Shown piece by piece: positions 25,481 to 35,953 of a DNA stretch of 64,000 bases (within the stretch, counting starts at the first letter, position 1; every line of letters starts with the position of its first letter). This stretch comes from Candidatus Omnitrophota bacterium (GTDB taxonomy: Bacteria > Omnitrophota > Gorgyraeia > Zapsychrales > JANLHA01). The stretch spans positions 133,152-197,151 of the forward strand of contig JACKFI010000001.1 in assembly GCA_020632555.1 (NCBI GenBank), in the 5' to 3' direction. Position numbers and translations under genes: made by a program. Below the pieces are notes generated by a model. It did no database searches. It had not been told where the DNA came from and was given only the letters and a program-made list of their open reading frames with translations.

Positions 25481-25515
25481 GCGTGATGGTCAAAAAAATG
25501 TGCCAGATTTGTGCC
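25481..25515 (+). repeat. Island direct-repeat motif, copy 1 (TGTGCCA-N4-TGTGCC)
   Basis: gcgtgatggtcaaaaaaATGTGCCAGATTTGTGCC; the 22-nt core is identical to copies at 29991-30012 and 35931-35952 apart from one base, and the flanking 5' similarity with copy 2 extends to about 35 bp. Confidence 0.7.
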
Positions 25516-25556
25516 TATCCTAAAGAGCTACTTTTTTTGATGATAAGCCGACCTGA

Positions 25557-26690
25557 TTAAGTGTCCTTCAATGCGTAACTTGTGCTGCGCCCACCCGCGG
25601 TTTCTTTTACTAAAATACCCTTTTCAACAAGATCGAGAATATCGCGCAACGCCGTGTCCTGTGAACACTGGGTGATCTTCGCCCATTTAGAAGAAGTGAG
25701 CTTGCCTTCAAAACCATCAAACAACTTATTGATGATCATCTTCTGCCTCTCGTTAAGGGATTGGGCAGGATGAGATTCCCAAAAACGCGCTTTCTTAAAT
25801 ACACCCGACAAAGTATTTTCAGTTGCATCCAACGCCCGACCCAAACAGCTCAGGAACCACACAAGCCATGGCGTAATATCAATGCCGTCTTTTGTGGCAC
25901 GGTTACTTTTCTGTGTTTTTTCAAGAATATCATAATAGGCATTCCGTTCCTGCCGGATCTGATTCGACATGCTGTAAAAACGCTCCCGGCTGCCGTCGGC
26001 ACGTGCCAGTTGCATATCGGCAATAGCCCGGGCAATTCTTCCGTTACCATCATCAAAAGGATGAAGTGTCACAAACCACAAATGCCCAATACCAGCTTTG
26101 AGCACAGGATCTAAATCCTTTGTGAGCGAAATCGAAGTGTTAAACCATTTCAGAAATTCCTTCATTTCACTTTTAAGACGGTTGGCCTGCGGTGCTTTAT
26201 AATGAACCTTCTCCCGGCCGATAGGACCAGACACAACTCTCATGGGACCATGCTTATCGTCGCGCCAATCAGCCACTGTAATTTTATGCATTCCGCTTCT
26301 ACCGGTTGGGAATAAACTGGCATGCCAGCCAAACATTCGATCCTGCGTAAGGGGCTTGTCAAATTTCTGTGTGGCATCGAGCATCATTTCCACCACTCCA
26401 TCCACATGACGATCAGAAGGCACAAGTCCACCGATGTCCATGCCCAGCCTGCGTGCAATGGATGACCGCACTTTGGCAGGGTCAAGAATCTCACCTTCAA
26501 TTTCACTACTTTTTAAAACATCAAGGGTGAGAGTCTGCAGGATTGCCTCGGAACGCAAAGAAAAACCCAATGCTTCCATTCTTCCAATCAGTCGCCCTTG
26601 GCGATTGCGGACAGTCCCCAAGATAGACGCGACCTTTTCGTGATCCCATGTCAATTTAGGCCAAATGGTTAATTCATGAATGTATTTCAT
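25557..26690 (-). CDS. Fic family protein (AMPylase-type toxin, class with N-terminal inhibitory motif)
   Basis: 377 aa; Fic motif HPFDDGNGRIARA; N-terminal S-x-x-x-E-G (SSEIEG) inhibitory-helix motif; C-terminal winged-helix-like region. Confidence 0.85.
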   Translation of the reverse strand: MKYIHELTIWPKLTWDHEKVASILGTVRNRQGRLIGRMEALGFSLRSEAILQTLTLDVLKSSEIEGEILDPAKVRSSIARRLGMDIGGLVPSDRHVDGVVEMMLDATQKFDKPLTQDRMFGWHASLFPTGRSGMHKITVADWRDDKHGPMRVVSGPIGREKVHYKAPQANRLKSEMKEFLKWFNTSISLTKDLDPVLKAGIGHLWFVTLHPFDDGNGRIARAIADMQLARADGSRERFYSMSNQIRQERNAYYDILEKTQKSNRATKDGIDITPWLVWFLSCLGRALDATENTLSGVFKKARFWESHPAQSLNERQKMIINKLFDGFEGKLTSSKWAKITQCSQDTALRDILDLVEKGILVKETAGGRSTSYALKDT

Positions 26691-26889
26691 GGCAAATTCC
26701 TGCGGTGAATAGTCTCATTATTCTACGCATACTATGCGGAGAATATACCATGTTTTCTCCGCATACACAAGAGAGATTTAAATCTATATTGCTCCCTACT
26801 AAAAGAAAGCGTCATTGGATATAACGGCTATGTCCAATCATATCCAATTATTGAATCTTTCCATGAGATTTGAAACGATGTGCCGGATT

Positions 26890-26909
26890 CCTGCCTACCG
26901 GCAGGCAGG
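26890..26909. repeat. Near-palindrome CCTGCCTACCGGCAGGCAGG (copy 1)
   Basis: 7-bp arms CCTGCCT/AGGCAGG around ACCGGC; embedded in a degenerate copy of the TGTGCC motif (gaTGTGCCggattcCTGCC...ggTGTGCCaa). Second copy at 38564-38583. Confidence 0.6.
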
Positions 26910-26918
26910 TGTGCCAAG

Positions 26919-34120: not shown

Positions 34121-34145
34121 TTGTTTTTCCCTTATATTGCCCCTT

Positions 34146-34173
34146 TCCTTTATCGTTGCTTAAAGCATACCCT
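34146..34173 (-). promoter_or_regulatory. Candidate sigma54 (-24/-12) promoter for the rtcB operon
   Basis: Minus strand reads TGGTATGCTTTAAGCAA with GG-N10-GC spacing about 25-50 bp upstream of the rtcB ATG. A sigma54 promoter is expected because RtcR is a sigma54 enhancer-binding protein; the elements are degenerate. Confidence 0.3.
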
Positions 34174-34243
34174 ATCCAAAGCCAAATGTCAAATTTATTT
34201 TTATTTTCTTGTATAAATGTTTATCCTGTGATATATTTATACC

Positions 34244-35842
34244 ATGAATACAAAAATTGCTATTGGGCTACTTGGGACAACCCTCGATCAAGGGAAAGAT
34301 GAAAATCGCTGGAACAAGTGGCGTCCGACCATCTCCCTTTTTCAGCACGAAGACCTCTTGATCCATCGTTTTGACTTGCTATACGAAAAAAAATTTCAAG
34401 ATCTTGCCGAGCAAGTTATTTCTGACATCAAATCCATCTCCCCTGAAACCAGAGTTGTGCCCCACATTATTGAAGTGAAAGACGCGTGGGATTTTGAGAA
34501 TATGTACAGCGTCCTTTTTGACTTTGCCCGCAATTATCCTTTTAATATAGAGAAAGAAGAATATCTCATCCACATCACCACCGGATCGCACGTAGCGCAA
34601 ATTTGTGAATTTCTTTTAACTGAAAGCCGATACTTCCCAGCTAAACTCATCCAGACCTCCCCTTCCAAAACCGAAGGCTTTAAAGGCGAATACCGCATCA
34701 TTGATCTTGACCTTTCTAAGTACGACAACATCGTCAAGCGATTCCGTAAAGAACAAAGAGAAAATTTATCATTTCTTAAATCCGGGATAGCGACTCGCAA
34801 TAGTAAATATAATCGGCTCATTGAACAAATCGAACGCGCGACGATCAACTCTAATGCCCCGCTTCTTCTCACCGGCCCGACCGGTGCCGGAAAATCACAT
34901 CTTGCCCGACAAATTTTTGAACTCAAAAAGATTCACAACCAAATCAAAGGCCAATTTATCGAAGTCAACTGCGCGACTCTGCGCGGAGAAATGTCGGCCT
35001 CCACCCTTTTTGGGCATGTCAAAGGAGCATTTAACTGCGCCATCAAAGACCGAATGGGATTATTACGCGAAGCCAATGAAGGGGTTTTATTTCTCGACGA
35101 GATTGGAGAATTAGGGATCGATGAGCAAGCCATGCTTCTTAAAGCATTGGAAGAACAAAAATTCTTGCCCATCGGCAGCGACGAGGAAGTTGAAAGTAAA
35201 TTTCAGTTAATTGCCGGGACGAATTTAGACCTTGGCATTGAAGTTGATAAAGGCAATTTTCGCACCGACCTCTACTCCCGAATCAATCTTTGGACATTCT
35301 CATTGCCTTCTCTTAAGGACCGTCCTGAAGATATCGATGCCAACATTGAATTTGAATTAGAAAAGTTTTCACAAACACACAATATCAACGCCACCATCAA
35401 TAAAGAAGCCAAAGATGCCTATTTGAAATTTGCGACATCAGAGAAAGCATTATGGAAAGCGAACTTCCGTGACTTGAATGCCTCCATCATTCGCATGACC
35501 ACATTAGCCGACGGCGGGAGAATCAATATTGAACTTGTGCAGGAAGAAATTGACCGGTTAAATAAACTTTGGAAGAGAAGCGAAGATACTCAAGAAGCGG
35601 AGATACTCGAACGTTTACTAACTCAAGAACAACTGCAAAAGCTAGACCGGATTGAAAAAATCCAATTGATTGAAGTTATAAAGATTTGCCGCGAATCACG
35701 CAACCTGTCTGAAGCCGGCCGCATTTTATACAATGCTTCCCGCACACTCAAATCAAGCACCAATGACGCCGATCGACTTAAAAAACTTCTCGCCCGCCAC
35801 GATCTATCCTGGGACCAAATTAAAAACGCTTCCGTACTATGA
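34244..35842 (+). CDS. rtcR: Sigma54-dependent transcriptional regulator RtcR (CARF-AAA+-HTH)
   Basis: 532 aa; N-terminal CARF-like domain; AAA+ sigma54-interaction domain (LLTGPTGAGKSHLA, GAFNCA, FLDEIGEL); C-terminal Fis-type HTH; divergent from rtcB. Confidence 0.85.
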   Translation: MNTKIAIGLLGTTLDQGKDENRWNKWRPTISLFQHEDLLIHRFDLLYEKKFQDLAEQVISDIKSISPETRVVPHIIEVKDAWDFENMYSVLFDFARNYPFNIEKEEYLIHITTGSHVAQICEFLLTESRYFPAKLIQTSPSKTEGFKGEYRIIDLDLSKYDNIVKRFRKEQRENLSFLKSGIATRNSKYNRLIEQIERATINSNAPLLLTGPTGAGKSHLARQIFELKKIHNQIKGQFIEVNCATLRGEMSASTLFGHVKGAFNCAIKDRMGLLREANEGVLFLDEIGELGIDEQAMLLKALEEQKFLPIGSDEEVESKFQLIAGTNLDLGIEVDKGNFRTDLYSRINLWTFSLPSLKDRPEDIDANIEFELEKFSQTHNINATINKEAKDAYLKFATSEKALWKANFRDLNASIIRMTTLADGGRINIELVQEEIDRLNKLWKRSEDTQEAEILERLLTQEQLQKLDRIEKIQLIEVIKICRESRNLSEAGRILYNASRTLKSSTNDADRLKKLLARHDLSWDQIKNASVL

Positions 35843-35923
35843 TCAATCCCTAATTTAATCATCCGTGATAGTTTATTTGAGAATTTATTGTAACCCCAAG
35901 AAGTGGCGTCAGGGGGGATTTTT

Positions 35924-35953
35924 GGTGCCAAAACATGTGCCAGATTTGTGCCA
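35924..35953 (+). repeat. Island direct-repeat motif, copy 3 (three half-sites GGTGCCA/TGTGCCA/TGTGCCA at 12- and 11-bp spacing)
   Basis: GGTGCCAaaacaTGTGCCAgattTGTGCCA; 25 bp before the stop of the HEPN gene and 82 bp after the rtcR stop. Confidence 0.7.

Follow-up and report, generated by a model that had tools for sequence, protein, structure and literature searches.

A phased TGTGCCA direct repeat as a probable arm-type integrase site marking fused islets beside a tRNA-Met gene in an Omnitrophota genome

A short direct repeat, TGTGCCA-N4-TGTGCCA, separates a series of defense, toxin-antitoxin and RNA-repair modules in the stretch of DNA analyzed here (hereafter the window), which comprises 64,000 nucleotides of contig JACKFI010000001.1 from a Candidatus Omnitrophota bacterium (assembly GCA_020632555.1). 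This motif is probably a pair of arm-type sites of a phage-type tyrosine integrase, with its copies marking the fused ends of islets that were accreted in tandem, namely MNT/HEPN, rtc, DUF6933 plus AbiE, and Fic. It is the position of the motif, its phasing, its distribution over two arms and its linkage to integrases that lead to this identification. The evidence consists of the anatomy of the motif copies, the tRNA fragments beside them, the shuffling of modules between genomes, the overlap with integrase tails, the co-variation of half-sites and the parallel with the attP of a P22-like phage.

The exact 18-mer ATGTGCCAGATTTGTGCC occurs three times on the plus strand of the window (25498-25515, 29995-30012 and 35935-35952), and a fourth match with three mismatches is found on the same strand at 26878-26895; these four matches compare with 0.06 expected, the mean for shuffled sequence. 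The perfect copies belong to a 22-mer, aaa(a/c)ATGTGCCAGATTTGTGCC, starting at 25494, 29991 and 35931 with one mismatch among the copies, just as an earlier, sequence-only reading of this DNA had described. All four copies have the same orientation, and read in the direction of the nearby tRNA-Met gene the motif becomes GGCACAAATCTGGCACAT, with TGGCACA as the half-site and a period of 11 bp. The original suggestion of a protein-binding direct repeat at one-helical-turn spacing still appears to hold. Copies 1 and 2 have another 14-19 nt in common, TGCGT(G/A)ATGGTCAA, and thereby share the approximately 35 bp first reported for them; the third half-site that had been placed beside copy 3 is also there (GGTGCCA at 35924, 12 nt ahead of TGTGCCA at 35936). 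The degenerate fourth copy is likewise present, at 26878-26916, but instead of being fused to a palindrome, as had been claimed, it is split by one of 20 nt, the minus strand from 26916 to 26878 reading TGGCACA, then CCTGCCTGCCGGTAGGCAGG, then AATCCGGCACAT. Every copy lies between modules, with its start 3-41 nt past a minus-strand stop codon, that of Fic, AbiEii, orf141 or HEPN; the single orientation and the intermodular position noticed at the outset apply to all four. Within the 64 kb the motif is confined to the island, and no spread of copies upstream of core genes is seen.

The attachment target (attB side) is an initiator-like tRNA-Met gene, from which the island runs towards lower coordinates. 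The island occupies 25.4-38.7 kb, directly downstream of the tRNA, and all motif copies are situated on this downstream side. Copy 1 is followed by a conserved 55-nt arm, TTTTTTGACCATCACGCAACATATTGTTATTAAACAGGTTGGGAATCAGGCTAGACCTT, and then by 12 nt, TCATAACCTGAA, corresponding to the anticodon loop and 3' stem of tRNA-Met, where the similarity ends; copy 1 closes the composite island on its distal, attR-type side. ARAGORN and Rfam, applied to the whole window, reported only three ordinary tRNAs and nothing at the motif, and a tRNA-like or other known RNA gene at the motif was consequently excluded.

The same arrangement was found in related metagenome-assembled genomes (MAGs), in two forms. 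In class A loci (L019, L035, L046 and L048, and in variant form L014 and L049) an arm like that of copy 1 comes after the motif and leads into CTCATAACCTGAAGGTCACAGGTTCAAATCC. Copy 1 with its arm is 87-92% identical over 89-90 nt to L019, L035, L046 and L048, and in all six loci the tRNA-Met 3' fragment begins exactly at the anticodon loop (CTCATAA), with no complete tRNA detected by ARAGORN at these fragments. In L049, an excisionase-like helix-turn-helix gene stops 4 nt before the motif. Class B loci (L013, L014, L017, L036, L041 and L044) have the order tRNA-Met fragment, terminator, degenerate sub-repeats, motif, TTTTGGCAC, AAAATCCCCCC and variable cargo. The class A motif is a doublet of half-sites, while that of class B is a triplet with additional degenerate sub-repeats, phased at 11 bp. 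Copy 3 of the window carries the class B downstream tail, with 88-91% identity to the class B arms of L013, L014 and L036, and from this sequence we read it as the class A doublet of an upstream islet fused to the class B arm of the rtc islet. Class A, the tRNA-Met core (CTCATAA to CCA) and class B are contiguous in L014 and L035, the L014 unit measuring 247 nt, with a 59-nt and a 106-nt spacer and with co-oriented motif clusters. In the related MAGs, 59 nt separate the core from one doublet, and the distance to the other is about 150 nt (106 nt when measured from the tRNA 3' end). The contiguous layout would be that of either an attP or the junction of two tandem elements. At the junction upstream of rtc in L044 (2690-3000), a class A motif, the full arm, 19 nt of core (CTCATAACCCGAAGGTCGG) and the class B tail follow one another; of this series, the window retains at the corresponding place no more than copy 3 and the class B tail. 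A metagenome scan with a 19-mer of the class A arm, CGCAACATATTGTTATTAA, gave 13 loci, all of them chance matches and none with the motif.

Partial tRNAs starting at the anticodon loop are an att signature of tyrosine integrases and not of transposition. They thereby count against a Tn7-like or Mu-like transposon that targets tRNA genes, the motif then being the transposase-binding repeat at its ends, an explanation that we regard as extremely improbable. The plus strand does read 5'-TGTG..., and the class B arm does hold several phased and degenerate sub-terminal repeats, but the motif has one orientation only with no inverted partner end, and the window contains no tnsABC/tniQ or Mu-type genes, its sole transposase being an unrelated IS256-family gene. 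Ends of CRISPR-associated (CAST) or Tn7-like transposons homing to tRNA were rejected for the same lack of inverted ends and transposition genes, and the iteron or transposon end proposed in the sequence-only reading finds neither inverted copies nor a transposase pairing nor replication genes in its favor.

The rtc, AbiE and Fic modules recur at 75-86% nucleotide identity, in differing combinations, in an Omnitrophota MAG (contig JANPFV010000110, of which L019, L044 and L035 are consecutive 8-kb chunks) and in 'Planctomycetales' MAGs. Read in the tRNA direction, L048 has rtc, motif, arm and tRNA fragment; L019 has rtc, RlaP, motif, Fic, motif, arm and fragment; L035 has AbiE, motif, arm, fragment and class B; and the window has rtc, orf141, motif, DUF6933-AbiE, motif, Fic, motif, arm and fragment remnant. 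The rtc module of the window is 82-85% identical at the nucleotide level to L019+L044 and to L048, and its AbiE part is 86.5% identical to L013, where a class A arm without tRNA fragment follows, and 78.8% identical to L035, where the class A arm comes with the fragment. A Fic homologue is found at the same position in L019. These homology blocks stop at the outer edge of the motif (25515, 26895, 30013 and 35953), and the motif co-varies with the cargo modules in related genomes, a pattern whose absence the sequence-only reading had named as evidence against a junction site.

Such shuffling might also be expected of a cassette recombination site (attC- or pdif-like), a module plus one motif constituting a mobile cassette and a recombinase cutting within or beside the motif. 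In agreement with this, modules end in the motif 3-5 nt after a stop codon, the same modules have other neighbors in related MAGs with homology breaking at the motif, all copies share a single orientation, and the AbiE copy gained a new neighbor with its motif already split. We nevertheless consider it unlikely, since the motif has no inverted-repeat core, its single-strand folds are no stabler than those of shuffles (z -1.7 to +0.7), no XerC/D-like dyad is present, and no recombinase gene was found in the window. Furthermore, related loci keep intermediates of the form A arm-tRNA core-B arm, which are predicted by accretion and deletion and not by exchange at the level of the motif, and other module boundaries (the rtcA 3' end) vary without a motif. 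An integron attC was rejected, as there is no hairpin and the motif is a direct repeat. The early idea of a recombination or cassette-junction site is thus retained in so far as the motif marks module junctions, but the crossover site is probably the anticodon-loop/3' segment of tRNA-Met and not the motif.

Outside these relatives, an exact 18-mer scan of 185,579 species genomes returned 50 loci distributed over many phyla, several of them on the same contigs. Since a uniform random model gives an estimated 17 or so matches, part of this set is noise; at least 23 of the 50 loci have recognizable integration features. In six loci of other phyla an intact tRNA precedes the 18-mer by 45-82 nt on the same strand, i.e. 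tRNA-Met in L003 and L010, tRNA-Ser in L016 and L024, tRNA-Lys in L029 and tRNA-Glu in L050. The two tRNA-Ser loci, both from Ignavibacteria, have it 55 nt after the tRNA and 37 nt before the start codon of an integrase. The 18-mer even forms the in-frame C-terminal tail GTNLA(H/P) of Phage_integrase-family proteins in L003, L023 and L026, and the L041 variant GGCACAAATTTGGCACCA also encodes an integrase C-terminal tail.

That these distant copies adjoin tRNAs and integrases, and not PAS-LuxR or RtcR, is difficult to reconcile with an operator, i.e. a 7-bp direct repeat with a 4-bp spacer through which a response-regulator or LuxR-type factor would co-regulate the modules. The geometry is as in PhoB/OmpR-type boxes, and a PAS-LuxR regulator gene lies just beyond copy 1. 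However, the motif tracks stop codons and not a fixed promoter distance, GerE/LuxR-type proteins usually bind inverted repeats, and no OmpR-family gene was seen in the region, either among its open reading frames (ORFs) or with Pfam. We find such an operator very improbable, and the shared operator for PAS-LuxR or RtcR suggested earlier is probably not what the motif represents.

The overlap with integrase genes was surveyed in 80 prophage loci with homologues of the motif-linked integrases (tblastn E values down to 1e-72), by comparing the DNA of the C-terminal tails. An exact 7-mer direct repeat with a 10-12-bp period was present in 17 out of 43 distinct tails, compared to a mean of 0.55 and a maximum of 4 in shuffles, and at an about constant distance after the catalytic RY(A/S)H. 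Enterobacterial ...VPN(L/M)SH... tails have TGTCCCA-N4-TGTCCCA, while CGTCCCA (twice), GGCACAA (twice), TGGATAC (three times) and TGGGAAG (twice) were found in one lineage each. At least four unrelated half-site sequences are represented, and both halves of a repeat vary together between lineages, which means that it is the DNA repeat that is conserved, not the peptide. The TGTCCCA family is that of the P22 group. In the attP of the P22-like phage ST104, the int-tail doublet TGTCCCAAATATGTCCCA (TGTCCCA-AATA-TGTCCCA) is followed by the int stop codon, a tRNA-Thr-derived core and, about 100 nt beyond the core and in the same orientation, a second doublet, TGTCCCGTTTTTGTCCCA (TGTCCCG-TTTT-TGTCCCA), the whole spanning 237 nt. 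Smith-Mungo, Chan and Landy reportedly mapped arm-type sites on both arms of the P22 attP in 1994, and the homologous DLP12 int gene is said to overlap argU, as described by Lindsey et al. in 1989.

The tail repeats also bear on another candidate function, in which the minus-strand TGGCAC-AAATC-TGGCA would be a near-consensus -24/-12 element, i.e. a sigma-54 promoter driving orf449-AbiE, PAS-LuxR and Fic, perhaps via RtcR or another enhancer-binding protein. With one mismatch to TGGCAC-N5-TTGCA, copies 2 and 3 are the best such sites in the window (copy 1 has two mismatches); copy 2 lies about 75 nt upstream of the orf449 ATG, copy 1 about 170 nt upstream of the PAS-LuxR ORF, and an rtcR gene is nearby. 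Yet copy 3 faces the rtcR 3' end in antisense, the palindrome splits copy 4, and sites with at most two mismatches are not enriched (25 found vs. 22 expected). The rtcB promoter region has no -24/-12 match but a sigma-70-like TTGACA-17-TATGCT, and elsewhere the motif is inside integrase coding tails, or between tRNA and int facing away from int. Finally, the repeats of homologous integrases at the same place (TGTCCCA, TGGATAC) have no sigma-54 likeness. We judge sigma-54 promoters to be quite improbable, and rejected them as the primary function on orientation and context, on the rtcB promoter and on the repeats of the homologous integrases. The likeness arises because TGGCAC is repeated every 11 bp, and looks coincidental.

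Returning to arm-type sites, the putative integrase-bound sequence would be TGGCACAAATCTGGCACAT, its doublet (a triplet in copy 3 and the class B arms) presumably being bound by the N-terminal domain of a heterobivalent integrase of the lambda/P22 type, for which the anticodon-loop/3' half of tRNA-Met would be the target. The deduced attP would consist of the class A doublet, 59 nt, the core (tRNA-Met CTCATAA to CCA), about 106 nt and the class B triplet, with the class A doublet ancestrally being the 3' tail of the int gene. Positions 25427-38730 would accordingly represent a composite island of at least four small, now integrase-less elements, serially integrated into tRNA-Met and each consisting, on entry, of a class B arm, cargo and a class A arm. 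At the internal junctions the attR-arm/core/attL-arm segment (about 230 bp) would have been lost, the likely route being deletion between the identical, directly repeated doublets of neighboring elements, and this would leave a single motif copy between modules, right after the last cargo stop codon. The close spacing of stop codon and motif is then likely to reflect that the doublet was the last part of the int tail or arm that had to stay. Deletion from doublet to doublet would explain copies 3 and 4, whereas copy 2 would stem from a less regular deletion.

Several points weigh against this interpretation. No tyrosine integrase was found in the window by tblastn with six integrases from motif-bearing loci, so that binding and current activity are here putative. 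The N-terminal 55 or so residues of related integrases match no arm-binding domain in Pfam or PDB by sequence, and in a PDB sequence search with the L041 integrase the matches spanned the core-binding and catalytic domains only, leaving the N-terminal 55 residues uncovered. The ST104 doublets, moreover, are only presumed by us to be the footprinted arm-type sites of P22. A survey with an exact 18-mer favors perfect copies, and unselected neighboring copies have 1-4 mismatches. Neither are all internal junctions motif-to-motif, as copy 2 keeps 19 nt of arm before it breaks, and the AbiE copy was fused although the palindrome had already split its motif; only 12 nt of homology are left there, which fits simple repeat-mediated deletion less well.

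It is conceivable, although we hold it doubtful, that the doublets are still live, and that a P22-type integrase encoded elsewhere captures and reshuffles, and perhaps also excises, integrase-less defense, toxin-antitoxin and RNA-repair islets in trans. In that case nothing but the arm-site doublet would have to be supplied by the element itself, the island would amount to a tRNA-fMet-anchored, integron-like cassette array in Omnitrophota-like bacteria, and the identical 18-mer across phyla would reflect a very widely shared integrase specificity.

The features of the island are collected in Table 1. Pfam agrees with the module names given in the sequence-only reading, and adds DUF6933-TPR (orf449), a band-7/SPFH gene inside the rtc block and the IS256-family transposase.

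Table 1. Motif copies, islets and tRNA-associated features of the composite island, in order of position.
Feature	Position	Strand	Details and source
Copy 1 (attR-type end)	25427-25515	minus	Motif 25494-25515; complete class A arm 25439-25493; tRNA-Met remnant 25427-25438
Islet 1, DUF4172-Fic protein	25557-26690	minus	Pfam
Copy 4	26878-26916	minus	Palindrome at 26890-26909; then class C tail 26807-26877, common to L019
Islet 2	26919-29918	minus	DUF6933-TPR 28569-29918; AbiEi-like 27859-28452; AbiEii 26919-27866; Pfam
Copy 2	29976-30013	minus	Motif and first 14-19 nt of class A arm (TTTTTATTGACCATTACGCA); arm cut before tRNA core
Islet 3	30018-35842	mixed	rtcR 34244-35842 (plus); rtcB 32603-34120, band-7/SPFH 31557-32306, rtcA 30547-31560 and orf141 30018-30443 (all minus); ORFs, Pfam
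Copy 3 with class B arm	35911-35953	minus	Three phased half-sites, TGGCACAAATC TGGCACATGTT TTGGCACC, then AAAAATCCCCCC
Islet 4	35977-37015	minus	MNT nucleotidyltransferase 36386-37015; HEPN 35977-36384; Pfam
IS256/Mutator-family transposase	37347-38471	plus	Pfam PF00872, 1.2e-89
17-nt repeat of tRNA-Met 3' end	38547-38563	minus	TCCTGTCCCCGCAACCA; then native terminator 38503-38546
tRNA-Met(CAT), initiator-like	38731-38804	minus	ARAGORN; Rfam tRNA, 64.5 bits; sequence

An insert of about 167 nt (38564-38730) separates the tRNA-Met gene from a repeat of its 3' end and terminates in the palindrome CCTGCCGGTAGGCAGG (38564-38579). The repeat beyond the insert covers the last 14-17 nt of tRNA-Met, TCCTGTCCCCGCAA, and L014, L035, L036, L041, L044 and L049 share this tRNA 3' flank, while a piece resembling the insert follows the tRNA fragment in L048 (1020-1139). 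The insert looks like a miniature element or remnant with the tRNA 3' end as att, unlike the anticodon-loop site of the islets. Comparison with L014 and L036 further indicates that the IS256 gene occupies the place that the degenerate sub-repeats of the class B arm have in related MAGs. Immediately upstream of tRNA-Met, 38813-39044 is a 116-nt tandem duplication with 91% identity, of which a piece of about 55 nt is also inserted within the tRNA fragment of L035.

The GC-rich palindrome, of 16-20 nt in the form (CCTG)CCTGCCGGTAGGCAGG, occurs twice in the window, i.e. inside copy 4 (26890-26909) and at 38564-38579, immediately next to the 17-nt repeat of the tRNA-Met 3' end. A 'Planctomycetales' MAG has the same palindrome insertion in its homologous AbiE module (L013, about 1870-1890). 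It may be a small mobile element, a REP-like element or a recombination scar. Only two short Logan contigs were retrieved with the Fic protein; both break off close to the repeat and reveal no structural variants. Outside the window, an identical Fic is encoded by short contigs alone, which terminate about 300 nt upstream of the gene, close to copy 4 (e.g. L131, a 3158-nt contig from Logan SRR12358676), which suggests that assemblies break at the copy-4 repeat.

A second type of repeat is situated upstream of Fic (about 26815-26850 in the window, 4590-4640 in L019), where TTGGATA-N3-TTGGACA and an inverted TATATCCAA are conserved in the Omnitrophota MAG. This could be a Fic operator or the arm sites of another integrase. 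The integrase tail of L051 has TGGATAC repeats.

Concerning the rtc islet, RtcR has GAFNCA in place of the GAFTGA loop usual in sigma-54 activators, and the rtcB upstream region (34164-34192) holds a good sigma-70-type TTGACA-17-TATGCT and no -24/-12 element; the rtc operon of this lineage may not be under sigma-54-dependent control. Homology of the rtc module to L019 and L048 stops about 100 nt before the rtcA stop codon (30547-30665 in the window). The gene between rtcA and the motif is orf141 in the window, an RlaP nucleotidyltransferase in L019 and yet another in L048, which shows that not all module variation takes place at the motif. An Omnitrophota islet with the same arms, L041 (1487-5519), encodes a TIR-domain (CAP12/Pycsar-like) protein together with other uncharacterized genes, and this cargo fits islets that act as carriers of defense genes.

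Taken together, the lineage is unfamiliar but the kind of site is known, and no new mechanism is involved. The site is mildly interesting for the identical 18-mer in several phyla and for the clear co-variation signal inside integrase tails. The presence of the motif at the junctions of defense, toxin-antitoxin and RNA-repair modules is explained as scars of serial site-specific integration at a tRNA-Met hotspot, and the combination of a TGGCACA doublet or triplet with a tRNA-Met anticodon-loop fragment offers a signature for delimiting integrase-less islets in little-studied lineages, of which Omnitrophota-like MAGs are an example. More generally, co-variation of half-sites in integrase C-terminal coding tails could serve as a sequence-only predictor of arm-type sites for uncharacterized tyrosine integrases, which could aid the annotation or engineering of att sites.

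Among known systems, the closest likeness is to the attP of P22- and lambda-type phages, with which the motif shares 7-bp half-sites in direct repeat at an 11-bp period. In P22-like phages the P' arm, adjoining the core derived from a tRNA, is overlapped by the 3' tail of int. As in P22-like attP, a doublet in or at the integrase tail is paired with a second, co-oriented cluster across a tRNA-derived core, and the integrases are homologous to those of the motif-bearing loci. The span is also similar, at about 240-260 bp (237 nt in ST104, 247 nt in L014, and 260 bp as listed for P22 in PMC4111918). The differences lie in the half-site (TGTCCCA there, TGGCACA here), in the target, which is here tRNA-Met with a crossover region from the anticodon loop, and in the orientation of int, which is co-directional with the tRNA fragment in the family of the window but convergent with thrW in P22. 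The host of P22 is enterobacterial, in contrast to the Omnitrophota-like lineage of the window, where the sites persist without an integrase and, at three of the four copies, without a core.

A further parallel is the KplE1 (CPS-53) attL, in which the region between tRNA argW and the start of intS contains the arm-type P' sites of IntS, overlapping with the intS promoter (PMC2951348). The same order of tRNA, arm sites and int is seen in the Ignavibacteria loci L016 and L024. KplE1 belongs to another integrase subfamily with another site sequence, however, and its geometry is not that of the window.

At the level of the whole island, the arrangement recalls the cis-mobilizable elements (CIMEs), which lack an integrase and are tandemly accreted at tRNA genes or other att sites, e.g. 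ICESt1/CIME in streptococci. Both are small cargo elements in one orientation beside a tRNA, with no integrase of their own, with att-derived bounds and with combinations varying between genomes. At most internal junctions in the window, however, the core repeat is gone and the arm-site doublet is all that is left, with the consequence that the internal modules are not excisable by canonical core-to-core recombination. Integron cassette arrays, lastly, have the same succession of ORF, stop codon and junction sequence, a single orientation and cargo rich in toxin-antitoxin and defense genes. The window differs from them in having no attC-type imperfect palindrome, stable single-strand fold, intI or attI, and its cassettes are joined by a direct repeat of nearly identical sequence.

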